Virus record (IMG/VR): IMGVR_UViG_2698536428_000017
Length of the DNA stretch: 40,320 nucleotides
DNA from: a virus
Taxonomy: Duplodnaviria > Heunggongvirae > Uroviricota > Caudoviricetes
Reading direction: 5' to 3' (one strand)
Made by a program: the position numbers and the translations under genes
Shown here: one piece after another, positions 3,392-40,050 of the stretch
How positions within the stretch are numbered: position 1 is the stretch's first letter
How the letters are laid out: the number at the start of each line of letters is the position of its first letter
Notes under the pieces: model-generated
Told to the model about the DNA's origin: nothing
What the model saw: only the letters and a program-made list of their open reading frames with translations
Databases searched by the model: none

Positions 3392-3787
3392 TCATGAAAC
3401 TCTAGCAGACTTTAGCTGTTCCCAGCGCTCAAAATAGAGTTCAGCAGCCTCGATTGCATCCTGTCCCATCTCTTTCGAAACAGTCACATTCGTCAGATCA
3501 TAGTCAGCTTCATTTCTAGCATCCCGCCACTGGCGAAGTACGAAAGCTAGGGATTTCAGTGTATTTGTCGGGTATGGCTCTGATTTGCACTCTGAGGGCG
3601 TTGACATATAACCCACAGTATTTTTGTGATGCTCATGGGTAAAATGCGGTATGGCAGTAAGTGAGCTAATAGACTCATGTAACATACTGTAATACGCCCT
3701 TGAGATAGCGCTTCGAAATCCACTCTCAATATTTTCAGACAGACATAATCGAGCGGTATCGAGAATCTGATTGCTAGTTACCGACAT
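3392..3787 (-). CDS. Hypothetical protein (moron gene 2), 131 aa
   Basis: ATG start, overlaps upstream ORF by 14 nt; about 40% GC against about 52% in flanking tail genes; no family recognised. Confidence 0.6.
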   Translation of the reverse strand: MSVTSNQILDTARLCLSENIESGFRSAISRAYYSMLHESISSLTAIPHFTHEHHKNTVGYMSTPSECKSEPYPTNTLKSLAFVLRQWRDARNEADYDLTNVTVSKEMGQDAIEAAELYFERWEQLKSARVS

Positions 3788-4547
3788 GGTAGCTCACCCC
3801 CGTATGCAACTGACGCGGAGAGGTAAATCTAGCTAACAGGGAACAATCATCCAGTTTAGATTCAGCGCAGACTCTATCAGCCAAGTCGAAGTTCATTTTG
3901 GCAATAGTTTTAGGCTCAAGATTTTTAATATCAACAACATAGCAACCGCTTCCACTAAGCTGAACGAAACCTGTCGTAGCCTTGTATTCACTTAGCAAGC
4001 CCCAGATTATGGATGCTAAGGTCTGGAACTGTTCCTTCGAGCACTGTGTGGCGCTATAGAAATTATCCATTTCTGCAAGGAGTTCTTCTTTGTGCTTCAT
4101 AGCATTACTCCTGCCTTCTGATTCAGAAAGAAGCTTAATGTGCTCTTCCATATAAAATTTTAACTGTTCACGCTCGCCGCAACGGTACGCCCAACTGTAT
4201 GCGTTGTGACTAAAGAGTTTTGTCCGATACTTCTTTGCCAGCGGGACATAGACATCCTTGAGTTCATTATAGCTAAATGTATTAATTAAAATGTGATGAT
4301 AGTGCATTGCCAACGTTACATCGTTTACTTCTAGGCTTATCCTGAGATAACGTAACGCGCTTTCAATCTTTCCGGTTATTGCATCCAGATAAGATAGTGC
4401 AATGTTGGTAGCAGGCGTTGGAGAGACAGAAAGTTCCTCTCGAATTTTCTTTTCAGTGAAGGGATCTAAACTTTCCCTATCCAATAGAAGCGCATTGAAT
4501 TGTTCAATATATTTTTGCGCTTTTTCTAATGGGATGCCTGCCGCCAT
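3774..4547 (-). CDS. Hypothetical protein (moron gene 1), 257 aa
   Basis: ATG at 4547..4545; low GC; no recognisable catalytic motif; inserted between baseplate hub and spike genes. Confidence 0.6.
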   Translation of the reverse strand: MAAGIPLEKAQKYIEQFNALLLDRESLDPFTEKKIREELSVSPTPATNIALSYLDAITGKIESALRYLRISLEVNDVTLAMHYHHILINTFSYNELKDVYVPLAKKYRTKLFSHNAYSWAYRCGEREQLKFYMEEHIKLLSESEGRSNAMKHKEELLAEMDNFYSATQCSKEQFQTLASIIWGLLSEYKATTGFVQLSGSGCYVVDIKNLEPKTIAKMNFDLADRVCAESKLDDCSLLARFTSPRQLHTGVSYHVGN

Positions 4548-6946: not shown

Positions 6947-8934
6947 TAACCCACCCTCACCTGATTACTTCGCATGACCTGAGCATTTGCAGACTGTTGC
7001 CGACGTGCAACCTCATTACCGACAGCGTGCGGATCTCCGCCACCGTAAATGTGGTAGGTATTTTGCTGGTTAACCTCTGTCATTTTGCCACTAATTCCCG
7101 CCACGGCAGCCTTATTAATCAGCTCTCGAGAATAGATATTTCTTCCATTTTCATGCTGGATAATGCTGCTCATCAATGCTGACATGGTTTTCGGATCGCT
7201 CATATTCAGGGCAGCCCGGGGATCCACTCCCAGTCGTTGCGATACAGCCCTGATATACGCAGTTGTGTTGTTATTATCAGAGGCAGGTGCCCAGGTAGAG
7301 ATAATTTTTTCCACACTGTTTATTCCTCGCCCGGCGTACAACATTAACTGACGAGCAAGAGCCCGTAATCCATCAAAGGCAGTTTCAAATCTGGCAAATC
7401 GCCCGCCCGGGTGTTCAAGAGAAGCCCCCGCCTGACCAGCAAAATTAAGGTTTCCCGGATTGTTATTCCGTTCTCCTCGTTTCGTAGCCTGTGCATGTTG
7501 TTCCGGCTCATCATCACCAAACCAGCCGCGTACCGTCCGGCCCACACTGCGGGGATCGAATCCCCAGTGCTCTTTAATCCAGTCGGCTGTACTGTTAGCG
7601 CTGTCTGTAACCATCGGCATCGCTGACGGATTTTCGCTGCCCTGATTAAGTATCTGTTTGCCGATGCTGACGGCATCAGCCCAGCGTCCATCTTTGATAG
7701 CGTTAAGCAGGTCGGCAATCATGTTCAGCATTTTGCTGAATTCGCCCATCTGGTCGATGAAGTTGCTGAAATCCCACTTCAGGGACCATGATTTGGGGTC
7801 AATATTGAGTAGTTTCGCCAGCGCTTTCGCCAGATCGTTAACGGTCGTTTTAAGGTCACGAACCATCTTCAGCGCGGCATCGACCTCCGGTTTCCACTTG
7901 CCCCAGTCAATCAGGCTGTCGCCGCCTTCCTTCCAGGTCTGATAGTCCTCCCACAGGAGGGCAATCCCCGCCGCCAGCGCGGTAATGAGGCCAACCGGCG
8001 ACATCCAGAACGTACTGTTCAGAATGCGCAGCGCAATCGTCAGTGCGCCAAACAGCGAGATCAACTCCCGCGTTTGCTTATCCAGCGATTGCCACCAGGT
8101 GATAAGGCCTGATGTCCCCTCAATCAGTCTGAAGAACAGCCGCCCGATAATATCCCCGAGCGCCAGAATGCCTTTTATGGCTTTCGTCAAGGTCTGCTCG
8201 ATACGAGGGAAGTTGTCCAGGATATGGCGGCGCAGGGTGTCCAGCGAACCTGCAAGCCCACCCGCAAGATTAGAGCCGATTTTGTCACGGGCCATGCCTG
8301 CCATCGCGCTAAACTCACGCAAGGAGGTCATAAATTTGTTGGAGTTTCTGGCCGCCTCGTCAGCATTGAAGCCGATAGCTTTCGCCATTGCGCTGTACTG
8401 CCCGGAGAAGCCACCCACACCCCGGCGCATCGCCATAAGGGTATTTTCGTCAATGCCCAGCATCTGCGCATACTGGTTAGCCCGGTAATACGGCATGCTG
8501 CTGAGTTTCTGTCCAATACCCGTAAAGATAGCGGCCATGTCACGCATGTTACCGCTGGCATCACGGGTCTGTACGCCCAGGCGATTCAGAAATCCCTCCG
8601 CCCCGGGATTATTACGAATAAACCGGGAGAGGTTTTCCAGAGAAGATCGCGCAGCGTCCACGCTGCCGCCAACCTGCGAAACCGCATAGCCAATAGACTG
8701 AATTCCCTGGACTGTCGCGCCGGTGCGCTGTGACGCCCAGTAAAGATTATCCAGACCAGAGGCGATCTTAGCCGTGAAGGCCACCACGGACAGCGCAGCT
8801 CCTTCGACGGCCAGCCCCATTTTGATGACATTTGCAGTTGTACCGGCGAGGACAGAACCGAATTTTTTCGCTCCTGCATCATCCACACTGAAGCCAAGCG
8901 AGACGAGGAAATCTTTAATAGTCTCGGCGTTCAT
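6946..8934 (-). CDS. Tail tape measure protein
   Basis: 662 aa from ATG at 8934..8932 with GGAGAG RBS (track ORF begins at an upstream TTG); helical Ala/Gly/Ser-rich composition; follows chaperone gene. Confidence 0.7.
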   Translation of the reverse strand: MNAETIKDFLVSLGFSVDDAGAKKFGSVLAGTTANVIKMGLAVEGAALSVVAFTAKIASGLDNLYWASQRTGATVQGIQSIGYAVSQVGGSVDAARSSLENLSRFIRNNPGAEGFLNRLGVQTRDASGNMRDMAAIFTGIGQKLSSMPYYRANQYAQMLGIDENTLMAMRRGVGGFSGQYSAMAKAIGFNADEAARNSNKFMTSLREFSAMAGMARDKIGSNLAGGLAGSLDTLRRHILDNFPRIEQTLTKAIKGILALGDIIGRLFFRLIEGTSGLITWWQSLDKQTRELISLFGALTIALRILNSTFWMSPVGLITALAAGIALLWEDYQTWKEGGDSLIDWGKWKPEVDAALKMVRDLKTTVNDLAKALAKLLNIDPKSWSLKWDFSNFIDQMGEFSKMLNMIADLLNAIKDGRWADAVSIGKQILNQGSENPSAMPMVTDSANSTADWIKEHWGFDPRSVGRTVRGWFGDDEPEQHAQATKRGERNNNPGNLNFAGQAGASLEHPGGRFARFETAFDGLRALARQLMLYAGRGINSVEKIISTWAPASDNNNTTAYIRAVSQRLGVDPRAALNMSDPKTMSALMSSIIQHENGRNIYSRELINKAAVAGISGKMTEVNQQNTYHIYGGGDPHAVGNEVARRQQSANAQVMRSNQVRVG

Positions 8935-9111
8935 TATCCTCTCTCCATTTCTCAATGCGCCGCTGGTTATCCGCTTTTACCGCCAGATGGTCATTCAAGA
9001 GAGCAATGTCGTACAAATCGACAGAGCCATCTTTAAGTGCTGTATAAGGAATTAACCCGGCGTCAACCGGATTGAGAAGGTAGGACAGCCCGTCCGGCAG
9101 GCTGTTAAACG

Positions 9112-9564
9112 TCAGCCCTGTTGCAGGCTCTGCGTCGTGCTGGTAAGGGGTGTAGGCAAAAAATTTCCCAGCGAATCGGCGACCACCCGCGCCACCAGCT
9201 GCAGCATGACCAGCAGGTCAATATCATCAAACATCAGTTCGCCCTGGGTAAATACCGGCACCCATCCGTCCATATGACGCCGCGATACCACCGCAAGACA
9301 GGGATGAATAATCGCATCGGTGTCATCTTCGGTCAGGGAAGACAGTTCCTCAGCGATACGCGGGAGCATGGTTTCAAACACCGGTTTTAACTGCTCGAAT
9401 TTCACGGTGTCGATTTTGCCATCAGCAGGCAAACTGGAGCGAATGCTCCCGAAATCTGACATCATTCCCGCCAGCACCGGAAGAAGTTTACGGGTCACTT
9501 TCAGCTGGTCAAAAACGCTGAGTTTTGCCGCGCGATATTTCACGCCTTTAATTTCGAATTCCAT
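9112..9564 (-). CDS. Tail assembly chaperone (zero-frame product)
   Basis: 150 aa ORF between tube and tape measure genes, the conserved chaperone position. Confidence 0.6.
   Translation of the reverse strand: MEFEIKGVKYRAAKLSVFDQLKVTRKLLPVLAGMMSDFGSIRSSLPADGKIDTVKFEQLKPVFETMLPRIAEELSSLTEDDTDAIIHPCLAVVSRRHMDGWVPVFTQGELMFDDIDLLVMLQLVARVVADSLGNFLPTPLTSTTQSLQQG
9157..9163 (-). other. Predicted -1 programmed frameshift slippery site (T TTT TTG)
   Basis: Heptamer in zero frame (codons AAT TTT TTG) 14 codons before chaperone stop; manual translation shows the -1 frame open for about 80 codons to a TAA at 8917..8915. Confidence 0.45.
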
Positions 9565-20462: not shown

Positions 20463-20987
20463 TTACCGGGACTGTTCTATTTGTCGGACACCAGCCAACT
20501 GGTTATTCGCCTTCTCGATGGCCGCCAACAGTGGGTTAATCCACAGAACAGCCTGGCAATATGTCAACGTTCTGGTGGTAGTGGCACGATCACCGGCTGA
20601 GTCAATGTCCCCGGAATCGGCGTGCAATGCGCTGGCGCGTAAACGGTTCGCGTAGTTGAGCAACCCGACAGCAATATCAACAGGAACAGGGAAATCACAG
20701 TTCTTTTCACGGAGCAGAACCTCACGGTATTTGATGACTGTCTTCTCGTGACCGATGTCGACCAGAGAATTTAATCGGCTTGCGTTTTCTGCTATCTGGT
20801 TAAAACGATTGAAGTTTAATGCCTGATTAGCTATCACTTTCCCTTGATATTCAGCTTCACCTTCCGCTTTATCAGCCCGCAACTTTTCTGCCTGATACTT
20901 GCTGTGGTAATGGTTTGCAGACCAGACGAGCGCCCCAAAGGCAGAGAAGAAAAATGCCGCGATGACAATCTTATAAGTCAGCTTCAT
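20463..20987 (-). CDS. Rz-like i-spanin
   Basis: 174 aa; N-terminal TM helix ending WSANHY, matching lambda Rz (WAVNHY); coiled-coil periplasmic part; follows endolysin. Confidence 0.6.
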   Translation of the reverse strand: MKLTYKIVIAAFFFSAFGALVWSANHYHSKYQAEKLRADKAEGEAEYQGKVIANQALNFNRFNQIAENASRLNSLVDIGHEKTVIKYREVLLREKNCDFPVPVDIAVGLLNYANRLRASALHADSGDIDSAGDRATTTRTLTYCQAVLWINPLLAAIEKANNQLAGVRQIEQSR

Positions 20988-21447
20988 TTACCACCCCACC
21001 AGCATCTTTAAACCTGGAAATCAGGTCACCGATTTTATGTTCATACTGACCGTAACCTGCACCAGGTAACGACGCCCAGATATTGCTGCAACGGTCGATT
21101 GCCTGACGAATATCGCCACGGTCAATCATCGGTAAAGCGCCACGCTCTTTAATCTGCTGCAGCGCCACAGCGTCCTGACTTTCTGGCGAAAAATCTTTCA
21201 GGCCAAGCTGCTTACGGTAGGCATCCCACCAGCGTGAAAGAAGCTGATACCGTCCTGCGGCTGTTGATTTAAGCTTCGGGTTTAGCGTGACAAGTTTGCG
21301 AGGGTGATCGGAGTAATCAGTGAACAACTCACCTCCGACGATAACGTCATAACCGTGATTACGTGTCGGTTGTCGCCCGTTATCCGTTCCTTCTGACCAT
21401 GCCACCATATCCAGGAAAGCTTTACGTTGGGAATTTAGTGTCTGCAT
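20971..21447 (-). CDS. Endolysin, lambda R-like lytic transglycosylase
   Basis: 158 aa; near-identical over most of its length to lambda R as recalled (NSQRKAFLDMVAWSEGTDNGRQPTRNHGYDVIVGGELFTDYSDHPRKL...). Confidence 0.8.
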   Translation of the reverse strand: MQTLNSQRKAFLDMVAWSEGTDNGRQPTRNHGYDVIVGGELFTDYSDHPRKLVTLNPKLKSTAAGRYQLLSRWWDAYRKQLGLKDFSPESQDAVALQQIKERGALPMIDRGDIRQAIDRCSNIWASLPGAGYGQYEHKIGDLISRFKDAGGVVNEADL

Positions 21448-21450
21448 GAA

Positions 21451-21792
21451 TTACTCCTTAGAGCCACCAAACTTGTTACCGATTACTCGCATTGCAGCCC
21501 CACGAATAGCATCCACACCGATCAGCCCAACACCACCACCAATGGCAACAGAAAGCGATTTAGGCCATCCAACATACTCAAGAGCGGATGCAAAGGTCAG
21601 CGTCAGAGCACCACAGAGCAAAATCTCAAGCGTTTTTCGTTTCCAGCCGCCGCCACCGCCAAAATAGGCAATGCGCAAGCCAGCCATAACAATTGACATA
21701 ACCACTGCGCCCAACGGCGTATCTCCACGCCACCAACTTTGTAAGAGTTCCAGTAAGTCAGGCCAGGAATGAGGAGCATTGTGCATTTTCAT
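21451..21792 (-). CDS. Holin, lambda S-like with dual-start MKM motif
   Basis: Start placed at ATG 21792 (MKMHNAP...) preceded by GGAGGTG; track ORF start at 21810 lies inside the RBS; hydrophobic helices. Confidence 0.6.
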   Translation of the reverse strand: MKMHNAPHSWPDLLELLQSWWRGDTPLGAVVMSIVMAGLRIAYFGGGGGWKRKTLEILLCGALTLTFASALEYVGWPKSLSVAIGGGVGLIGVDAIRGAAMRVIGNKFGGSKE

Positions 21793-21893
21793 ACTTCCCA
21801 CCTCCGCCATTACGGGGTGTTGTTGAAAGGCGGGCCCTGCGTATACGCCCGTAGGATTGGGTTATGAGCCGTCCTTCGGTGGGCCCTGAATAC

Positions 21894-25448: not shown

Positions 25449-26123
25449 ATGATTGATACTACCGATATCCTTTCTCAAAACATCAAGTACCTGATGGACA
25501 AAGCCAAGATAAGCTCGATAACTGAGCTGGCACGTCGGTTACAGCTGAACCAACCAACGCTACACAGGCTGGTATCAGGAGAGGTGAAAGATCCGAAATA
25601 CGCAACGTTAAAGCAGATCGCCGACTACTTCCACGTGTCACCAATAGACTTGGCAGAAAGGAGCCTTCAAGAAATGGAGAAAGAGGACGCGACAGGTATA
25701 AAAACGTATATTTCTCTTAGGTTTAATAAAGTACCTGTTTTGGGAAACACTCAGCTAGGCGTTGGAGGACTTTGGAGCGACACCCAATATTCAGTAGGTA
25801 GCAGTGATGGTTTCATATACTGGCCGACAAAGGATGAAGATGCATACGCCCTGAAATGTGTTGGTGATTCAATGATGCCTAGAATCAAAGAGGGGGAGTT
25901 CGTAATCGTCGAACCCAACCACGACTACACTCCTGGTGATGAAGTACTTGTGGTTACCCGGGAAGGTGAGGTCATGGTTAAAACCTTCTTGTTCGAACGC
26001 GATGGCCTGTTCCATCTAATGTCTGTAAATGAAGATCATCCACCAGTCAGAGTACCACGCGAAAACATTGAAAAAATCCATTACGTGGCGGGGATCGCCA
26101 AATCCGCGCTACGTATGTACTAA
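25449..26123 (+). CDS. CI-like repressor (N-terminal HTH, C-terminal S24 LexA-like peptidase)
   Basis: 224 aa; HTH region (SITELARRLQLNQPTLHRLVSG); S24 catalytic motifs GDSM and downstream Lys (VMVKTF). Confidence 0.8.
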   Translation: MIDTTDILSQNIKYLMDKAKISSITELARRLQLNQPTLHRLVSGEVKDPKYATLKQIADYFHVSPIDLAERSLQEMEKEDATGIKTYISLRFNKVPVLGNTQLGVGGLWSDTQYSVGSSDGFIYWPTKDEDAYALKCVGDSMMPRIKEGEFVIVEPNHDYTPGDEVLVVTREGEVMVKTFLFERDGLFHLMSVNEDHPPVRVPRENIEKIHYVAGIAKSALRMY

Positions 26124-26460: not shown

Positions 26461-26613
26461 GGGGTGGGGTGAAGATCAGTCCATTGAGTCAATCCGAAGT
26501 TCAGCATCTACCACTACACCACTAGACTGGCCCCCTGAATCTCCAGACAACCAGTATCACTTATTTAAGTGATAGTCTTAATACTAGTTTTTAGACTAGT
26601 CATTGGAGAACAG

Positions 26614-26979
26614 ATGATTGATGTCTTAGGGCCGGAGAAACGCAGACGGCGTACCACACAGGAAAAGATCGCAATTGTTCAGCAGAGCTTTGAACCGGGG
26701 ATGACGGTCTCCCTCGTTGCCCGGCAACATGGTGTAGCAGCCAGCCAGTTATTTCTCTGGCGTAAGCAATACCAGGAAGGAAGTCTTACTGCTGTCGCCG
26801 CCGGAGAACAGGTTGTTCCTGCCTCTGAACTTGCTGCCGCCATGAAGCAGATTAAAGAACTCCAGCGCCTGCTCGGCAAGAAAACGATGGAAAATGAACT
26901 CCTCAAAGAAGCCGTTGAATATGGACGGGCAAAAAAGTGGATAGCGCACGCGCCCTTATTGCCCGGGGATGGGGAGTAA
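26614..26979 (+). CDS. insC: IS2 transposase OrfA (InsC)
   Basis: Translation [41 protein letters not shown]... matches IS2 InsC; true ATG at 26614 (track ORF begins upstream). Confidence 0.9.
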
Positions 26980-27842
26980 GCTTAGTCAGCCGTTGTCTCC
27001 GGGTGTCGCGTGCGCAGTTGCACGTCATTCTCAGACGAACCGATGACTGGATGGATGGCCGCCGCAGTCGTCACACTGATGATACGGATGTGCTTCTCCG
27101 TATACACCATGTTATCGGAGAGCTGCCCACGTATGGTTATCGTCGGGTATGGGCGCTGCTTCGCAGACAGGCAGAACTTGATGGTATGCCTGCGATCAAT
27201 GCCAAACGTGTTTACCGGATCATGCGCCAGAATGCGCTGTTGCTTGAGCGAAAACCTGCTGTACCGCCATCGAAACGGGCACATACAGGCAGAGTGGCCG
27301 TGAAAGAAAGCAATCAGCGATGGTGCTCTGACGGGTTCGAGTTCTGCTGTGATAACGGAGAGAGACTGCGTGTCACGTTCGCGCTGGACTGCTGTGATCG
27401 TGAGGCACTGCACTGGGCGGTCACTACCGGCGGCTTCAACAGTGAAACAGTACAGGACGTCATGCTGGGAGCGGTGGAACGCCGCTTCGGCAACGATCTT
27501 CCGTCGTCTCCAGTGGAGTGGCTGACGGATAATGGTTCATGCTACCGGGCTAATGAAACACGCCAGTTCGCCCGGATGTTGGGACTTGAACCGAAGAACA
27601 CGGCGGTGCGGAGTCCGGAGAGTAACGGAATAGCAGAGAGCTTCGTGAAAACGATAAAGCGTGACTACATCAGTATCATGCCCAAACCAGACGGGTTAAC
27701 GGCAGCAAAGAACTTTGCAGAGGCGTTCGAGCATTATAACGAATGGCATCCGCATAGTGCGCTGGGTTATCGCTCGCCACGGGAATATCTGCGGCAGCGG
27801 GCTTGTAATGGGTTAAGTGATAACAGATGTCTGGAAATATAG
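26937..27842 (+). CDS. insD: IS2 transposase OrfB (InsD), DDE catalytic domain
   Basis: 301 aa matching IS2 InsD as recalled; overlaps insC in -1 frame, A6G slippery run present. Confidence 0.9.
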
Positions 27843-31595: not shown

Positions 31596-32225
31596 TCACT
31601 CAGGAATCTTAATCTTCCTCAATTCTTTATTTAGTTCACAGATCTTCTTCTTAGACGGGAAAGTATCATACATCCAAAAACCAACAGTCTCTAAAACTAT
31701 TGTCATAACCATATACACAAGATAATTTAAAAGGCCTTCATTTTGCCCTATGGAAATAATGCAGATAATAGAAAAAAGGATAAACAGCACAAAACACAGA
31801 AAGGAAAACAGACGACTAATAATAAATAAAAAACCTGAAAAATTAACATTGATGAAAAACACTCCGTTATCTTTCTCTATATAATTCTGAAGCTTAATCA
31901 CCTGATTTATATACTGTCTTTTTTCTAATCTATTGCAAATGTAAATAACATCACTTCGGTTATAAGAAGATTGCAATTTCAGCGCATCACGAATAATTTT
32001 ATCATTTATTCTTTTTTCTATGGCACTCTTATCCTCCTTATCCAGATAACGTTCATACTTAACTAAATATAAAATTAACTTCTTGACATATTTAGGCTCT
32101 TTATACTTATAATTAAAAATGATCTTTCTTATCCAGACTCCCATAACAATCAAACATGAAAAAATATATCCAGCTATTTTCTCCAGATGCTCTGTATGGT
32201 CAATCAAGTATTGGATCATATGCAT
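31596..32225 (-). CDS. Hypothetical multi-pass membrane protein, 209 aa, strongly AT-rich
   Basis: About 23-35% GC in sampled 60-nt lines against about 52% flanking; predicted TM near residues 18-38 and two C-terminal TM helices; antisense to the replication operon. Confidence 0.6.
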   Translation of the reverse strand: MHMIQYLIDHTEHLEKIAGYIFSCLIVMGVWIRKIIFNYKYKEPKYVKKLILYLVKYERYLDKEDKSAIEKRINDKIIRDALKLQSSYNRSDVIYICNRLEKRQYINQVIKLQNYIEKDNGVFFINVNFSGFLFIISRLFSFLCFVLFILFSIICIISIGQNEGLLNYLVYMVMTIVLETVGFWMYDTFPSKKKICELNKELRKIKIPE

Positions 32226-34556: not shown

Positions 34557-34852
34557 TCGTTTACGTTGCCGGGCCGATGAGCGGTTACGAGCAATTTAAC
34601 CGCCCGGCTTTTCATTCCGCAGCAAAGAGGCTAACGGACAAGGGATATGTTGTGCTTAACCCCGCAACTTTACCCAATGGTTTGACACAGGCTCAGTATA
34701 TGGACATCTGCCTCGCAATGCTTCGCTGTGCCGATACGATTTATATGCTCAAAGAGTGGGAGTACTCTGCTGGCGCACGTGCAGAAAACGCGTTGGCAGA
34801 GAAACTGGAATTGAATGTGCTTTTTGAAGAGTGGGATTCAGATGGCCTATGA
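34553..34852 (+). CDS. Nucleoside 2-deoxyribosyltransferase-like protein (DUF4406-like)
   Basis: 99 aa; N-terminal IVYVAGPMSG and downstream EWEYSAGA fit the NDT-like signature as recalled. Confidence 0.55.
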   Translation: MIVYVAGPMSGYEQFNRPAFHSAAKRLTDKGYVVLNPATLPNGLTQAQYMDICLAMLRCADTIYMLKEWEYSAGARAENALAEKLELNVLFEEWDSDGL

Positions 34853-35111
34853 ACGTGAAAGCCTTATCGAAAAGCACCTCGTCGCTGAAGTGAAAAAAGC
34901 TGGCGGAGTGGCCTTTAAGTTTGTATCTCCCGGTCACCGCTCGGTACCGGATCGCATTGTCCTGCTACCAGGTGGTCGTATCGTTTTCGTTGAATGTAAA
35001 TCTCCCGGCAAGCCACCACGGCCTGACCAATTGCGCGAACATGAACGTCTGCGAAAACTGGGCTTTACCGTAGTGGTGCTGGATAGCAAGAACCTAGAGA
35101 GGATATTATAA
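34815..35111 (+). CDS. VRR-NUC domain nuclease
   Basis: Motif PDRIVLLPGGRIVFVECK is a PD-(D/E)xK signature typical of VRR-NUC; true start may be the ATG at 34842. Confidence 0.55.
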   Translation: MCFLKSGIQMAYERESLIEKHLVAEVKKAGGVAFKFVSPGHRSVPDRIVLLPGGRIVFVECKSPGKPPRPDQLREHERLRKLGFTVVVLDSKNLERIL

Positions 35112-35115
35112 AAAT

Positions 35116-35685
35116 TTAGTCAATGCCTTTTTGATTGAACTTCTGATTCTCCAGTATGCTTTGCAGCTCAATATTATCATTTGCAGCGGTTTGTTTATGC
35201 TCATGATATTTTTCTTGCGTATAATTTCTTTCTCTTAGTTTCTGTGCGTAATTATTAGAAATAATATCATGACGATCTTGTAATACTTGTTCAAGTTGAC
35301 TTTTAAAGTCCTCTATCTTTTCATTAGAAATAACATTTTTGTACTTTTCAATATCACGGCGAAGTTCTTTTTCTTTCTTCTTATTAATGCTTAATAACTG
35401 TCGATTAACGCTACCTAAGGACCATTTAAACCCAATCGACTTTATCCAATGCGCCAGAAACATAGCGCAACTGGGAAGCATTAATAAAAGAAATGGCTTT
35501 ATTGTATTTAAATCAGAACCAATATACGGAAAACGACCGTCCCACGAGGACACCAGTAATGTTAAAAAACCAGTGATGCCACCAGCAGCAACATTAGAAA
35601 TCAGAGGGACTTTTTCGTAGCTATCAGGTTTAGAAGCGCTACTCAAACGTCCCTCCTTTGACTGATCTTCCAGCACGAATGGCAT
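35116..35685 (-). CDS. Cassette gene 3: membrane protein with two TM helices and a charged coiled-coil C-terminus, 189 aa
   Basis: ATG at 35685 with weak RBS, overlapping the previous ORF by 47 nt; low GC; convergent with VRR-NUC, 4 bp between stops. Confidence 0.5.
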   Translation of the reverse strand: MPFVLEDQSKEGRLSSASKPDSYEKVPLISNVAAGGITGFLTLLVSSWDGRFPYIGSDLNTIKPFLLLMLPSCAMFLAHWIKSIGFKWSLGSVNRQLLSINKKKEKELRRDIEKYKNVISNEKIEDFKSQLEQVLQDRHDIISNNYAQKLRERNYTQEKYHEHKQTAANDNIELQSILENQKFNQKGID

Positions 35686-35887
35686 TCATTGCAATTTTGT
35701 AAAATTCATCATCAGAAGAGACATCAACGACATCGCGACGGACAACTCCTTCTGAGTCAACACATTCAAGAACAAGATGATGTTTAGGCATAAGCGCAAA
35801 GCGTAACCGGTCAAACCCCATCTTAAGAACCCAATATAGTACGGGAAGCAGGCTAAAAAAAGCCAGCCAAAAAGCAAAAGCAATCAT
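35639..35887 (-). CDS. Cassette gene 2: small membrane protein, 82 aa
   Basis: ATG at 35887 with GGGGAGGGGG RBS; N-terminal TM helix (IAFAFWLAFFSLLPVLYWVL); competing 65-aa ORF in another frame starts with TTG and was not preferred. Confidence 0.5.
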   Translation of the reverse strand: MIAFAFWLAFFSLLPVLYWVLKMGFDRLRFALMPKHHLVLECVDSEGVVRRDVVDVSSDDEFYKIAMNAIRAGRSVKGGTFE

Positions 35888-35910
35888 AGCCCCCTCCCCA
35901 TGTGAATCTA

Positions 35911-36789
35911 CTATAAGATGCCGTGTACTTTAACAACTATGTACGTTTTGTCCAGCGAATTCAAGTTCTCACGGACGAGCAAATCAACGCAGTAAGCATC
36001 ACTAAAAACACCAGGTTCTCTTCCCGTACTAACACGTTGTAAGAACTCAGTATCTTCTATAGACACGCTGATTGTGTCATCGCCATAGTTGACTCGCCAG
36101 CCTGTGTTTTTATCCTTATGAATAGTCAAAAATGTGATTAGAGCCTCTTCAATCACCCTTTCAGACAAGGACTGCACTACAGGAACGCGCCTATATCTGA
36201 ACGGTTCAATATTATCTTCGTGCACCTTAATCAGCTCAACCCCCTGTTGAGTTGAAATTTTAAGCGATTCGTATCCTTCCTTTTGCAAAGGATTATGAAT
36301 TAACTTCGATAAGGATTTGCGTATGCTTGGTGAGGCAAGTAAAGGCCGGAAATATGACGGGGCTATAATTTCCTCACCATCATCCATAACTATTTTACAG
36401 TCTCCTTCCGCTGTTAAAGTCAACCGTTTTATTTGCCTACCATTGATCTGACGAATTAAGTCAATGAGAGTATTTCCTGCTGCGAGTGCAGTTGTACCTC
36501 CAAGCCCAATAATGCTTAATATATTCAAATGGTCAAGTGGATTTTGAATAACATCAATCAAATACTCAAATGAGCCTTCCTTAAAAGGCTCAACCTCAAC
36601 ATTAATACACTCACTAGTGCCATTGACAACCAAATTAACTTCTTTAAGCAAGTTGTTTAGTCCATTCAATGACTCAGTTAAAACATCCAAATCTATTTTA
36701 TGATCTGCTAGTGCGGGACCATCATATTTAACAACTAATTTATCAGTAATATTTTCTTCTTGCTGGACATCTGTATAAGCTGAGGTCAT
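35911..36789 (-). CDS. Cassette gene 1: hypothetical soluble protein, 292 aa
   Basis: ATG at 36789 with AAGGA RBS; about 33-38% GC; no recognisable motif; divergent from SNF2 gene with 67 bp between starts. Confidence 0.6.
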   Translation of the reverse strand: MTSAYTDVQQEENITDKLVVKYDGPALADHKIDLDVLTESLNGLNNLLKEVNLVVNGTSECINVEVEPFKEGSFEYLIDVIQNPLDHLNILSIIGLGGTTALAAGNTLIDLIRQINGRQIKRLTLTAEGDCKIVMDDGEEIIAPSYFRPLLASPSIRKSLSKLIHNPLQKEGYESLKISTQQGVELIKVHEDNIEPFRYRRVPVVQSLSERVIEEALITFLTIHKDKNTGWRVNYGDDTISVSIEDTEFLQRVSTGREPGVFSDAYCVDLLVRENLNSLDKTYIVVKVHGIL

Positions 36790-36856
36790 AACTGTTCCTT
36801 TCGAAATAAATAATTAAGCTATTACTACATAAGTTCATTCATGGAGATACAATACC

Positions 36857-38254
36857 ATGGACTATGCTATATTTTCACCTCACCCCTACCAAGATCTCAT
36901 CATCAATCATCAAATCGACATTATGCGCTGCAACATCTGGGCAGGTATGGGAATGGGTAAAACCGTGGCAACGCTCACTGCGCTGGAAGATCTTTTTATG
37001 GCAGGGGCAGAAACACGCCCCGCACTGGTCCTCGCGCCGCTACGTGTTGCAGCAAACACCTGGCCGGATGAAGCAGTGAAGTGGGGGCATTTGCGCAATA
37101 TCGAGGTGCAGCCGATTGTTGGTAATGCCAAAGCGCGCTCTACGGCGCTGGCGAACAGCAACGCAAGCGTGTTCACCATCAACTACGATAACCTTGTCTG
37201 GCTGGTTGAAGAATTGGGAGAACGATGGCCGTTCGGTATTGTCATTCCAGATGAAAGCACCCGGCTAAAATCCTTCCGGCTGCGAGGTGGTGGTAAGCGC
37301 GCGGCGGCACTGGGCAAAGTGGCGCATAAGTATGTCCGGCGCTGGATAAATCTCACCGGTACGCCAGCACCGAACGGCCTGGTAGATTTGTGGGGACAAT
37401 CGTGGTTTGTGGACCAAGGGCAACGTCTCGGGCGCACTTACGGTGCGTTTACCTCACGCTGGTTCAACTCGATACAGTTTCCGGGACAGAGCTGGACTAA
37501 ACTGGAGCCTTTTGCTCACTCACAGGGTGAAATACAGCGAGCATTAGCCGATGTGACCCTCTCGCTAGATGCGGCCGACTGGTTCGATATCAAAGACCCC
37601 ATCCATAACGTAATCCGCGTGGATATGCCGCCGAAGGCCCGTCAGCAGTATCGTGAAATGGAAAAGGAAATGTTCCTCGAGCTGAATGGCGAAGGCATCG
37701 AAGCACCGAACGCCGCGGCAAAGACACTGAAGTGTCTTCAAATCGCCAGTGGCGCAGTATACACAGACGACACCGGAAGTTGGTCAGAACTGCATGACAC
37801 CAAACTACAGGCGCTGGACAGCATACTGACCGAAGCAGCTGGCGCACCTGTGCTGGTTGCTTATCACTGGAAACACGATCTTGAACGCTTGCTTAAAGCA
37901 TTCCCTCGCGGTCGTCACCTCGACCAGGATCCACAGACACTGCGCGACTGGAATTCCGGAAAGATTCCTGTTCTCTTTGCACACCCAGCCAGCGCGGGCC
38001 ACGGCCTGAACATGCAGGACGGCGGAAATATACTGGTATTTTTCTCACACTGGTGGGACCTGGAGCAATATCAGCAAATTATTGAACGTATCGGCCCCAC
38101 CAGGCAGATACAGGCCGGACACAATCGTCCGGTATTTATTCACCACATTATTGCTGCCGACACTATGGACGAAATGGTGATGGAGCGGCGCAACTCAAAA
38201 CGAACAGTGCAGGACATCCTGCTCGATGCCATGAAAAAGAGAGGTATAGCATGA
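36857..38254 (+). CDS. SNF2-family helicase
   Basis: 465 aa; Walker A AGMGMGKT; motif II DEST (IPDESTRLK); C-terminal helicase lobe. Confidence 0.8.
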   Translation: MDYAIFSPHPYQDLIINHQIDIMRCNIWAGMGMGKTVATLTALEDLFMAGAETRPALVLAPLRVAANTWPDEAVKWGHLRNIEVQPIVGNAKARSTALANSNASVFTINYDNLVWLVEELGERWPFGIVIPDESTRLKSFRLRGGGKRAAALGKVAHKYVRRWINLTGTPAPNGLVDLWGQSWFVDQGQRLGRTYGAFTSRWFNSIQFPGQSWTKLEPFAHSQGEIQRALADVTLSLDAADWFDIKDPIHNVIRVDMPPKARQQYREMEKEMFLELNGEGIEAPNAAAKTLKCLQIASGAVYTDDTGSWSELHDTKLQALDSILTEAAGAPVLVAYHWKHDLERLLKAFPRGRHLDQDPQTLRDWNSGKIPVLFAHPASAGHGLNMQDGGNILVFFSHWWDLEQYQQIIERIGPTRQIQAGHNRPVFIHHIIAADTMDEMVMERRNSKRTVQDILLDAMKKRGIA

Positions 38255-38451
38255 GCGAGAAACCCGACGATTTACTCACCCCGGATGAAGTATGCCAAAA
38301 GTTAGGTATTACACAGAAAACGCTATGTGAGTGGAATATTAAGCATCGTCATCGGGCTATCCTGGCACCAATTCGTTTCAGTGCAAAAGTAGTTCGTTAT
38401 GAGCGCCGCAATGTCGACGCTTTTATTCAAAAGTGTCGCAGCCGGTATTAA
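38251..38451 (+). CDS. AlpA-like small HTH protein (candidate excisionase or regulator)
   Basis: 66 aa; LLTPDEVCQKLGITQKTLCEW then ...VVRYERRNVDAFI fits the AlpA/Xis-type winged HTH pattern; coupled (ATGA) to the helicase stop. Confidence 0.5.
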   Translation: MSEKPDDLLTPDEVCQKLGITQKTLCEWNIKHRHRAILAPIRFSAKVVRYERRNVDAFIQKCRSRY

Positions 38452-39845
38452 CCTCGCCGCCGTAGCAATGCCACCTGCGCAAGTATGCTCCGCTCGTGAG
38501 CCTCGAAAGCTTCGCGCTTTAACGCAATCTCTTCCTGCAAAATCTCATCAGAAAAGTCGTAATGTTCTGCCATCGGGTCATCTGACTTGCTGGAGTGGTG
38601 AAGGCAAAGGAGGCTGATTTCCCTTCGGTCTGATCGGGAATAGCCTCTTTCCTTCATCAAGGCAATAACATTGCTCTTAAGGAATTTACGGCACATCGTA
38701 TTAAATGCACCGTCTTTCCCTTTAACAGTCCCATCATGTTTTATTCCTTTTACAGCCCCATCCGGGCTGTATGTTTTCACTAGCTTATCCAGTGATCGTT
38801 TTGAAAATGGCTGCATTGGATCACGCGGCTGCAAAAATACATAATCCCTGTTGCACTCAGGAACTGAATCACGCCATGCTTTCTGCTCGTCGATAATCCG
38901 CCGGATCTCCGGCGTTATTGGCAGGCGGAAAGCCTTTTGTGTTTTCATAGCCCCTCGCATGCCGATAACCCCTTCAGGATAAACAATTTCGCCAGTCTCC
39001 TCGTGAACGTAGTCCCAGCGCAGGTTATGGACATTAATCGGACGAACGCCGGTGATGATCATGAAGCGAACAGCATTCTTCTGGTGTACAGAGGTGCAGG
39101 CGGCAACATTGAGCCAGAGCCGGGCGATTGACTCAATATCGGTAAAAAGCCGTGTGGGGGTGGGTTTCTGTACGCGGGAGGAAACATAATCATCTGGCAG
39201 ACTGGCAGCAACATTGCGACCGTTACAAAGAGTAGGTGCGCAGAACTTCCAGAACCGACGGAGCTCGGCAAACAACTCCAGGGCGTTATTGTTCGAGCGA
39301 GTGGCGATCCACTCGTCCAGCACTTCCACCAGCCGATTGTATGTTACGTCGCTGAACACCTCACGCTCGCCGAACGTTGCTTTAATCCGGTCGATACGCA
39401 CCCCGTAGGTTGTGAAACTGTCCGGGCTCAGCTTCTGCCGGGCGACTTTGGCTTTGAGGTCATCCCGGTACATTTCCAGCGCTGCATGTACGGACTCTGC
39501 CCGCAAGCCACCGTCAGCCATACCTAGCGCTTTTTCGCGCGCCAGCTGGATAGCGAGCTCCGGCCACTCGCCGAGCTTTTTACCCTTGAGGCCCATCTTT
39601 TTTGGAAACTCGGCGTAAAATGTAACCTTACCGGCTTTGCTGAAATCGATACGGAGATAGTTCTCTTTTTCGTATTTGGAACGGCGAGCCACGCCGGAAG
39701 CAGCGAGGATGATTTTGGCGGCAGCAACACAGATTTTCATGTGTGCGCTGGTATAGGGGGGTTTACAGGCGTCCCATTTTTCAGATGCGGCTAAAACATC
39801 GTCATTATTGGGGCTATCCGGATTATGTGTTACAGTGCGCGGCAT
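38448..39845 (-). CDS. Tyrosine integrase
   Basis: C-terminal half carries recombinase-like residues (TGVRPINV, LHH, EHY); adjacent to host gene; first ATG at 39845 (track ORF begins at TTG 39851), true start may be further in. Confidence 0.7.
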   Translation of the reverse strand: MPRTVTHNPDSPNNDDVLAASEKWDACKPPYTSAHMKICVAAAKIILAASGVARRSKYEKENYLRIDFSKAGKVTFYAEFPKKMGLKGKKLGEWPELAIQLAREKALGMADGGLRAESVHAALEMYRDDLKAKVARQKLSPDSFTTYGVRIDRIKATFGEREVFSDVTYNRLVEVLDEWIATRSNNNALELFAELRRFWKFCAPTLCNGRNVAASLPDDYVSSRVQKPTPTRLFTDIESIARLWLNVAACTSVHQKNAVRFMIITGVRPINVHNLRWDYVHEETGEIVYPEGVIGMRGAMKTQKAFRLPITPEIRRIIDEQKAWRDSVPECNRDYVFLQPRDPMQPFSKRSLDKLVKTYSPDGAVKGIKHDGTVKGKDGAFNTMCRKFLKSNVIALMKERGYSRSDRREISLLCLHHSSKSDDPMAEHYDFSDEILQEEIALKREAFEAHERSILAQVALLRRRG

Positions 39846-40050
39846 TCTCAATCCTTATCTGCGTAGGCGCAGAAAACAAGCTCACACATACAAGTCTTTT
39901 CTACGGGACAAAATGCAATGTGTTGCGGTTTTGTGTTGCTGGACTGAGTTTATCAAGGTTAAATACACTGGATCAACATACAGTAAGTTAATGACAGTAA
40001 AGCATACAAACTCGATACAACTTACTGATTTTAAAATGATTTAACGGTAA

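Follow-up and report, generated by a model that had tools for sequence, protein, structure and literature searches.

Three genes on the minus strand of an Escherichia coli prophage (positions 35116-36789) form one operon that is inherited together across hosts and across two virus realms, and profile matches place the product of the first gene in a family that had already been predicted to be a defence candidate. We put the chances at about even that this trio is a horizontally mobile accessory operon (a 'moron') lodged in a variable slot, where it would protect the lysogen from other phages in a Rex-like manner.

The element that hosts the cassette is a vB_EcoM-606R2-like prophage of E. coli integrated at yfhL. 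In the window (the whole stretch of DNA analysed, 40,320 nucleotides) the ORF list places three co-directional minus-strand ORFs, at 35911-36789, 35639-35887 and 35116-35685, between a gene for a VRR-NUC (PD-(D/E)XK) nuclease on the left (34842..35111, plus strand, as annotated in the identical locus L001) and a gene for a SNF2-family helicase of the prophage replication module on the right (36857..38254, plus strand), both outside the cassette. These coordinates confirm the arrangement given in the first-pass annotation, which also had the cassette running opposite to every flanking gene; the latter is correct for the immediate neighbours but not for the integrase gene (38448-39851) or for a low-GC ORF at 31596-32225, which also lie on the minus strand. 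The window also holds a repressor gene at 25449-26123, away from the cassette, and a putative lysis-type gene cluster that can be read from the ORFs at 20463-21810. The low GC content first reported for the cassette is borne out by a scan in 300-nt windows, with values of 0.29-0.43 in the cassette against 0.50-0.58 in its flanks. Gene by gene, the values are 0.388, 0.426 and 0.348 for genes 1, 2 and 3, whereas the DNA polymerase and SNF2 genes have 0.543 and 0.536, and the window as a whole 0.499. Likeness to related prophages stops at the VRR-NUC gene, the matches of the relatives spanning query positions 1-65 only. A search for direct or inverted repeats bordering the cassette, as marks of insertion, returned only short matches at chance level, and no Rfam family was detected in the window.

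Comparison with orthologues that are 85-92% identical reveals purifying selection on all three genes, with dN/dS values of 0.06-0.07 for genes 1 and 3 and of 0.12 for gene 2. Because dN/dS is low and the trio recurs in 34 loci, the genes are real and not chance ORFs. They constitute one operon, with spacings of 23 nt and -8 nt and strong Shine-Dalgarno sequences. The spacer between genes 1 and 2 (35888..35910, minus strand), as read from the sequence, holds the gene-2 Shine-Dalgarno GGGGAGGGGG, and the start of gene 3 and the stop of gene 2 share 8 nt (35639-35646), an overlap that implies translational coupling. The divergent intergenic region, from the ATG of gene 1 to the ATG of the SNF2 gene, is 67 nt long (36790..36856) and contains both ribosome-binding sites; the promoter of the cassette must lie within it or within the 5' end of the SNF2 gene. 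No sigma-70-like site was found on the minus strand of this spacer, counts of such sites were no higher than in shuffled sequences, and no sequence upstream of the trio is conserved between contexts. Likewise, no terminator was found behind gene 3, whose stop codon is separated by 4 nt from that of the converging nuclease gene.

The co-inheritance of the three genes is best seen in the 34 loci where gene 1 shares 43% protein identity or more with ours. In every one of them gene 1 is followed directly by a gene-2 homologue, and in 33 of the 34 an ORF of the gene-3 type (161-176 aa, with hydrophobic segments and a charged tail) overlaps the end of gene 2; in a decayed copy (L004) gene 3 is frameshifted. 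Identities of the three products drop in parallel (78/62/67, 65/61/48 and 48/44/39% for genes 1/2/3), and the architecture of gene 3 is retained in loci whose sequence has diverged beyond the reach of tblastn. The trio is found in at least seven unrelated contexts. These include the slot between VRR-NUC and SNF2 in the prophage of this window and in the identical locus; a position adjacent to the integrase in lambdoid prophages of E. coli and Klebsiella; a position directly behind an S24 CI-type repressor, and co-directional with it, in two independent lineages (Serratia loci L040/L041, with a gap of 86 nt, and loci L037/L038, with a gap of 29 nt and no terminator); a non-prophage island of Aeromonas, beside the type I R-M gene HsdR with Mrr_N and Fic, or beside T6SS genes; the tail-gene block of a Pantoea prophage; and a position beside the integrase of a non-tailed, PM2-like Vinavirales virus of Vibrio. 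In all contexts the GC content of the trio stays at 0.37-0.40, against 0.46-0.58 for the host flanks. The nuclease-helicase slot is itself variable, being occupied in related prophages by Arc/Arc/Rha genes or by two other hypothetical genes, and the cassette is missing from close relatives of this prophage. Few E. coli strains carry the trio, which is present in 19 of 5,426 complete genomes. Taken together, the variable slot, the number of contexts and a GC content of its own strongly support the earlier proposal that the cassette is accessory cargo. It may have replaced the usual contents of the slot in a vB_EcoM-606R2-like prophage.

Gene 1 (35911..36789, minus strand) encodes a soluble, acidic protein of 292 aa with a net charge of -15. 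It had at first been described as lacking any recognisable motif, but it matches NCBIfam NF053583 (193.7 bits, with a cutoff of 60, over residues 19-290), phrog_3243 (E 1.4e-100) and the PADLOC PDC-S42 model PDLC05015 (E 6.1e-40, residues 17-288). NF053583, named 'LAPAL motif-containing putative phage structural protein', phrog_3243 and PDC-S42 are the same family, which comprises 4,598 cluster representatives and has a weak match to Pfam DUF7946. Residues G24, L41, R157, W231-R232, D246 and F249 are invariant across gene 1 and the family. The position of the LAPAL motif reads LTESL (LTESLNGL) in gene 1 and in all relatives that are at least 48% identical, and DLAPALLA in distant members. Since the literal L-A-P-A-L motif is absent, we place gene 1 in a divergent subfamily, related by homology to the other members but not bearing the motif.

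The predicted structure of the gene-1 protein consists of an N-terminal alpha+beta domain (residues ~14-200) followed by a C-terminal OB fold (~205-292), the latter meeting the definition of this fold, a five-stranded beta-barrel with an alpha-helix between strands 3 and 4. A structure search with the N-terminal 200 residues gave no close or informative neighbour, and neither gene 1 nor its family profile has a sequence match among PDB chains. OB folds are present in the ssDNA-binding proteins RPA, SSB, PriB, Teb1 and RMI1, but the identity of gene 1 to these is only 5-13%. Conserved aromatic and basic residues (W231-R232, F249) do occur in its OB domain; the domain as a whole, however, has an excess of acidic residues (14 D+E, 9 K+R). 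Such acidity, in the domain as in the whole protein, speaks against simple DNA binding; other ligands of OB folds are proteins and sugars.

PDC-S42 is a single-gene phage defence candidate, one of 145 PDC systems, and the PDC candidates were derived by guilt-by-embedding in R-M (type I), BREX and DISARM loci. Homology between PDC-S42 and gene 1 is full-length, but the former is defined as a single gene, whereas the gamma-proteobacterial clade of gene 1 (at least 43% identity) adds two genes for membrane proteins. Members of the wider family, like gene 1, are found in prophages and beside R-M or methylase genes. Most of them have no membrane partners, and therefore gene 1 must be able to act without them.

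The NCBIfam name raises the question of whether gene 1 encodes a virion or morphogenesis protein, with genes 2 and 3 as helpers of assembly or lysis. The Pantoea trio, which lies inside a tail/baseplate block and is co-directional with it, would agree with this, as would a distant member of the gene-1 family found just upstream of terminase genes. Despite the name, searches of the PDB and of a viral structure library gave no fold match of gene 1 to capsid, tail, portal or baseplate proteins, and the homology to a structural or replication protein that would have contradicted a defence role did not appear. In addition, the cassette is antisense within a replication module, and close prophage relatives do without gene 1. 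The trio keeps no fixed position in a structural module, occurring in replication, int, cI, R-M island and tail-block settings and in the PM2-like virus, and the same three genes are shared by tailed prophages, a tailless virus and non-phage islands. As for a part in lysis, the putative lysis-type cluster of this prophage is located elsewhere. We regard a structural role as largely refuted and very improbable.

Gene 2 (35639..35887, minus strand) encodes 82 aa with a single hydrophobic segment at the N-terminus (residues 2-20, Kyte-Doolittle value of 2.06) and a C-terminal domain of ~60 aa carrying the conserved motif VDVSxDxEFYxxAMxAIRxG; both the transmembrane segment and the strong ribosome-binding site of the original description hold. 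Four K/R residues right behind this segment predict, by the positive-inside rule, that the C-terminal domain is cytoplasmic. For gene 3, the most likely start, judged from the sequence, is the TTG at 35646 (35116..35646, minus strand), which yields a protein of 176 aa and not the 189 aa initially given: AGGAGG stands 4 nt before this codon, RefSeq WP_000093032.1 starts there (176 aa), and the phrog_15878 profile aligns with the longer ORF over residues 14-189, that is, from the same TTG onwards. The protein has two moderately hydrophobic segments (residues ~15-33 and 46-71, Kyte-Doolittle values of 1.5-1.65), in accordance with the two transmembrane helices proposed earlier, and a proline-free tail of ~100 aa rich in K, E, Q and N. 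The coiled coil proposed for this tail does not stand up, as 293 of 500 shuffled sequences reached the observed heptad score. K/R-rich stretches behind the transmembrane segments predict that the tail is cytoplasmic. Gene 2 matches phrog_15510 (E 2.4e-55), and the gene-3 family is small (21 clusters, all from Enterobacterales). Scans of genes 2 and 3 against Pfam, NCBIfam and PADLOC returned nothing significant and no known effector family.

Two small proteins predicted to reside in the inner membrane and coupled to gene 1 throughout the clade could also mediate non-lethal superinfection exclusion, with genes 2 and 3 keeping phage DNA out or halting infection at another early stage at the membrane, gene 1 as a cytoplasmic accessory and survival of the cell. 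Envelope proteins of this kind are known from T4 (Imm and Sp) and P22 (SieA), and gene 2, with its 82 aa and one N-terminal transmembrane segment, presumably resembles T4 Sp in size and layout. Placement beside cI or int, as seen in several contexts, is also typical of exclusion genes expressed in the lysogen. Nevertheless, prediction puts the soluble portions of genes 2 and 3 in the cytoplasm and not in the periplasm; known entry blockers need no conserved cytoplasmic OB-fold protein of 292 aa; and members of the wider gene-1 family manage without membrane partners. We consider this reading unlikely, if well worth keeping in mind.

Protection of a lambda Rex type agrees better with the organisation of the trio. 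In lambda, RexA is a soluble DNA-binding protein and RexB, a four-TM protein, is the effector that damages the membrane, both being encoded downstream of cI (PMC12894663 for RexB). As in lambda RexAB and in RexABpp of Pseudomonas putida, a soluble protein of ~280-290 aa is followed in one operon by one or more small inner-membrane proteins. The position downstream of CI is matched by the L040/L041 and L037/L038 trios but not in this window, and the four TM segments of RexB compare with one hydrophobic segment in gene 2 and two in gene 3. The likeness is one of organisation: homology to RexA or RexB was considered and rejected, with no sequence or profile match (BLASTP of gene 3 against RexB gave E 3.4) and with gene 1 lacking the RexA fold, which is split into globular and dimerisation (RdgC-like) parts. 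Likewise, a PADLOC v2 scan of the three proteins at E<=1 returned PDC-S42 models only, for gene 1, leaving genes 2 and 3 unmatched; homology to Kiwa, Zorya or the CBASS/Pycsar/retron TM effectors represented there is thus not detectable. Kiwa, made up of the membrane protein KwaA and the soluble protein KwaB, resembles the trio in broad outline, in that a compact operon encodes one or more membrane proteins beside a soluble protein of ~300 aa. Support for a defence or exclusion module, as suggested in the first-pass annotation, is indirect and comes from the match to the PDC-S42 candidate and from the trios located directly behind a CI-type repressor in two lineages.

Genes placed next to cI or int may also be regulatory or conversion genes, and the trio might act outside phage defence altogether, as a regulator of lysis-lysogeny or induction, an addiction or toxin-antitoxin-like stabiliser, or an envelope-altering factor of lysogenic conversion. 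RexA itself is reported to bias the lambda switch without any need for RexB. Some toxins are small membrane proteins, and an E. coli copy in which gene 3 is frameshifted and which adjoins an IS66 element is what would be expected of a costly gene. On the other hand, the viruses that carry the trio differ widely and have unrelated regulatory circuits, the PM2-like virus being one of them, and the trio is also found in a non-prophage R-M island, a distribution that fits self-contained protection of the host better, and the gene-1 family was independently picked up by its embedding in defence loci. We find a role of this sort quite improbable.

The cassette had also been proposed to be an undescribed system. 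This does not apply to the gene-1 family, which is catalogued under the three names given above, but the three-gene form with membrane partners was not found described. A search of the literature yielded no mention of PDC-S42, DUF7946, the LAPAL protein motif or the RefSeq accessions of the trio, and nothing relevant on phage 606R2. DUF7946 does not appear among the validated systems in the main text of the DefensePredictor study, which excluded PDCs as unvalidated.

Returning to Rex-like protection of the lysogen, we propose how the trio could work, assuming by analogy with lambda Rex a division into a sensor (gene 1) and an effector (genes 2 and 3). The operon would, we infer, be expressed in the lysogen of this prophage, where gene 1 would serve as a cytoplasmic sensor. 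Its OB fold, with W231-R232, D246 and F249, may recognise a cue of infection as its ligand, either a nucleic-acid intermediate or a protein of the incoming phage. Once activated, gene 1 would act on genes 2 and 3, which would form a complex in the membrane with their soluble parts, by prediction, on the cytoplasmic side. This complex could then permeabilise or depolarise the inner membrane, as in abortive infection, or stop the infection at a step that depends on the membrane; we infer both the interaction of gene 1 with genes 2 and 3 and the effect on the membrane. When the prophage is induced, lytic transcripts of the replication operon would traverse the cassette in antisense and could silence it. 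More tentatively, and with less than even confidence, we suggest that the trio is an uncharacterised three-component anti-phage system that evolved the logic of Rex independently, with an OB-fold sensor of otherwise novel fold and a heteromeric effector of one 1-TM and one 2-TM protein, that it is exchanged among Caudoviricetes, PM2-like Vinavirales and chromosomal defence islands, and that its antisense placement lets the carrier prophage shut it off by transcriptional interference upon its own induction.

If the cassette does defend against phages, PDC-S42, with its ~4,600 cluster representatives, would turn from a database candidate into a validated defence family, one clade of which would have recruited a dedicated two-protein membrane module. 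The trigger and mechanism of lambda Rex are still debated, and a second, evolutionarily independent design that joins a soluble sensor to a membrane effector would allow a comparison that could show which features are essential. A compact cargo of 1.7 kb common to tailed and non-tailed temperate viruses would also bear on the passage of defence genes from one mobile element to another and, since the trio is found in clinical isolates of E. coli, it may matter for host range in phage therapy.

The prophage lies in a segment of an E. coli chromosome, integrated beside yfhL (integrase gene at 38448-39851, yfhL from 40060), and several complete genomes, NZ_CP024826.1 among them, carry its cassette region with 100% identity. 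Between the VRR-NUC/PD-(D/E)XK nuclease gene, which ends at 35111, and the SNF2 helicase gene, which starts at 36857, we found three co-directional minus-strand ORFs in a GC trough (0.29-0.43 against 0.50-0.58 in the flanks, in 300-nt windows); the GC of genes 1, 2 and 3 is 0.388, 0.426 and 0.348, and that of the polymerase and helicase genes 0.54. The ORFs and the trough bear out the low-GC, three-gene antisense cassette described in the first-pass annotation, with minor corrections. Gene 1 (36789-35911) has a ribosome-binding site of the AGGA type, and gene 2 (35887-35639) starts 23 nt past the gene-1 stop, preceded by GGGGAGGGGG. Gene 3 (to 35116) most plausibly starts at TTG 35646, with AGGAGG 4 nt before it and an 8-nt overlap with the gene-2 stop. 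This gives 176 aa, the form annotated in RefSeq, with the same start as the PHROG profile, rather than the 189 aa originally assigned, since the upstream ATG of that version lacks a ribosome-binding site. Between the gene-3 stop and the converging stop of the nuclease gene there are only 4 nt, and between the start codons of gene 1 and SNF2 only 67. No promoter for the cassette was identified in the window.

Over the replication module the prophage backbone shares 97.5% identity with Escherichia phage vB_EcoM-606R2, in which the same slot holds two unrelated plus-strand genes. In other yfhL prophages the slot is filled by Arc, Arc, hypothetical and Rha genes; in two related ones (L002, 6059-7623; L003, 6059-7692) these are Arc (+), Arc (-), a 58-aa hypothetical gene and a Rha-family regulator, an arrangement resembling the P22 immI arc/mnt/ant antirepressor region, so that the cassette in the window replaces a possible secondary immunity module. 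Homology between the window and its relatives ends exactly at the nuclease stop codon, and the cassette is found in 19 of 5,426 complete E. coli genomes.

Elsewhere the trio adjoins the integrase in lambdoid prophages of E. coli and Klebsiella, lies within the tail/baseplate block of a Pantoea prophage (L017), and in Aeromonas neighbours either type I R-M HsdR, Mrr_N and Fic or T6SS genes. It stands directly behind an S24 CI-type repressor in Serratia, and behind another CI-type repressor in loci L037 and L038, where the 29-nt gap consists of a ribosome-binding site only and holds no terminator; in the window it is not adjacent to cI, the repressor gene being at 25449-26123. Vibrio phage 10N.286.45.F8_PE001 (PQ189332.1; locus L045, 6989-8593) also carries the trio next to an integrase (284, 83 and 161 aa, the gene-1 protein 43% identical). 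This phage is a temperate PM2-like virus of 14.4 kb (Vinavirales, realm Varidnaviria), and it is a case of identical accessory cargo common to tailed and non-tailed viruses. In every context the trio keeps a GC of 0.37-0.40 against a host background of 0.46-0.58. Upstream sequences are not conserved between contexts, which places the start of the mobile unit about 50-70 nt before gene 1. The variable slot, the different genes of relatives, the many contexts and the constant GC firmly establish the cassette as accessory cargo, as had been proposed.

A second low-GC (0.295) antisense gene occupies 31596-32225 (-) in the replication module, between the DUF2815 and DNA polymerase genes. Its 209-aa product has several hydrophobic segments, belongs to phrog_10579 (no assigned function) and matches nothing in Pfam or PADLOC; phage 606R2 has a same-size gene at this position and other yfhL prophages a 199-aa hypothetical gene, and the position is probably one more moron slot. 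Phage 606R2 has, between its DNA polymerase and nuclease genes (8701-9462 in its fetched locus), a gene annotated as 'TIR-like domain-containing protein' that the window lacks, which again indicates that variable accessory genes are numerous in the replication operon of such phages. Just downstream of the CI-type repressor gene, where 606R2 has small hypothetical genes, the window carries an IS3-family insertion sequence (26569-27842, +; HTH_Tnp_1 orfA overlapping rve-integrase orfB). Finally, two ORFs of lower GC (0.41-0.43; 257 and 131 aa) at 3392-4547 (-), with no Pfam or PADLOC match, lie in the tail/baseplate block, in the slot that holds the trio in the related Pantoea prophage; this may be another cargo slot with different, uncharacterised cargo.

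The three ORFs are genuine genes that go together as a unit. Against orthologues 85-92% identical, dN/dS is 0.06-0.07 for genes 1 and 3 and 0.12 for gene 2. Among 34 fetched loci with a gene-1 homologue (43-100% identical), a gene-2 homologue lies immediately downstream in all 34 (tblastn E <= 2e-11), and an ORF of 161-176 aa overlaps its end in 33; this ORF matches gene 3 except in Aeromonas, L037/L038 and the Vibrio virus, where it keeps the layout of hydrophobic segments plus charged tail. The identities of the three proteins fall in parallel across loci, and the tiny gene-3 family (21 clusters, Enterobacterales only) mirrors the gene-1 clade. The one locus of the 34 without such an overlapping ORF is that of E. 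coli O157:H16 (CP062876.1), where gene 3 is frameshifted. In that locus (L004, 6061-6652) it is in two pieces of 120 and 51 aa, with an IS66 element just downstream; this trio has decayed naturally, and it could point to a fitness cost.

Neither gene 2 nor gene 3 matches Pfam, NCBIfam or PADLOC models. At its N-terminus gene 2 has a single strongly hydrophobic segment with four K/R residues behind it, and further on a conserved domain of ~60 aa with the motif VDVSxDxEFYxxAMxAIRxG. In gene 3, two moderately hydrophobic segments are followed by seven K/R residues and a proline-free K/E/Q/N-rich tail; a crude heptad test gave no support for the canonical coiled coil that had been read there. By the positive-inside rule, the soluble parts of both proteins would face the cytoplasm, the compartment of gene 1.

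Gene 1, initially thought to lack any recognisable motif, belongs to a known family. Its matches are PADLOC PDC-S42 (E 6e-40), phrog_3243 (E 1e-100), NCBIfam NF053583 'LAPAL motif-containing putative phage structural protein' (193.7 bits against a cutoff of 60) and, weakly over its N-terminal 60 residues, Pfam DUF7946. 'Undescribed' therefore holds for the three-gene form and not for this family, which in an exhaustive profile search (E <= 1e-3) numbers 4,598 cluster representatives, mostly of 300-310 aa; the DLAPALLA of distant members, from which the family takes its name, aligns with LTESLNGL in the gene-1 clade. PDC-S42 is one of 145 PADLOC entries that their authors explicitly present as candidates only, chosen because the genes were found inside BREX, DISARM and type I R-M loci. 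We found no paper on PDC-S42, DUF7946, the LAPAL protein motif or the RefSeq accessions. The distant relatives inspected lack genes 2 and 3: one is behind a CI-type repressor beside HicAB, one upstream of terminase, others adjoin DNA methyltransferases, one is in an island with C5-methylase, HATPase, HNH and SNF2 proteins, and one is inside a polysaccharide gene cluster. In two alphaproteobacterial-type contigs with different flanking chromosomal genes (L014, 5546-7207; L044, 5516-7208), the ~305-aa family member lies between two small ORFs. The one before it (152-162 aa) overlaps it by 4 nt and aligns with the N6_N4 DNA-methylase profile over positions 1-74 of 221, its first third, and nowhere else; the one behind it (93-109 aa) has no Pfam match. 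A methylase may be split here, or the three genes may form a distinct arrangement.

The AlphaFold2 model of gene 1 (60-sequence alignment) has a mean pLDDT of 83 and a pTM of 0.65. Searches of the PDB and a viral library returned no capsid, tail, portal or baseplate fold; the suggested check for homology to a phage structural protein thus came out negative, the 'structural protein' label of NF053583 is unsupported, and a role of the trio in the virion is very improbable. The label may stem from members adjoining terminase or tail genes. The protein is acidic (net -15), and its predicted C-terminal OB domain (about residues 205-292) has 9 K+R against 14 D+E; a protein, and not nucleic acid, may well be its ligand. 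The model is least confident (pLDDT 45-75) at residues ~83-110 (36460-36545), a fairly hydrophobic stretch rich in Gly and Ala, NILSIIGLGGTTALAAGNTLIDLI. The matching Vibrio segment passes a TM-like hydropathy threshold (KD 1.58); the stretch may be a flexible loop, or else an element with a latent capacity to interact with the membrane.

The closest functional analogue appears to be lambda RexA/RexB, whose genes lie immediately behind cI, are expressed in lysogens and code for a soluble protein and a membrane effector; once activated, the latter causes membrane damage and abortive infection. The layout is common to both systems, as is, in two lineages, the exact position behind a CI-type repressor; the membrane part differs, a 1-TM plus a 2-TM protein against the single 4-TM RexB. 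Membership of the Rex family was rejected (hhalign probability of gene 1 against RexA 0.2%; no similarity to RexB). We propose by analogy that the trio is an independent, Rex-like defence module, in which gene 1 would sense infection via its OB domain and activate a gene 2/gene 3 membrane complex; every step beyond joint production of the three proteins is what we infer. The sensor/effector split is an assumption, because most members of the gene-1 family work with no membrane partner. As for the outcome, abortive infection is our best guess, at about even confidence, and non-lethal exclusion, in which the cell would survive, is unlikely. The lack of an identified promoter and of cI adjacency in the window, and the acidic OB domain, weigh against the proposal; roles outside defence seem more doubtful still than exclusion. 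As the cassette is antisense, transcription of the replication operon in the lytic phase has to run through it before reaching SNF2, which, speculatively, could silence it during the prophage's own induction. The first-pass reading as an exclusion or defence system is borne out in part: the accessory cargo stands, and defence itself we reasonably infer, as the PADLOC candidate list independently suggests.

The cassette would be a new three-gene version of an established design, in which a prophage brings together a soluble sensor and a membrane effector. It is compact, easily cloned and able to move between virus realms, and it provides an independent system to set against Rex, whose mechanism has long been unresolved.
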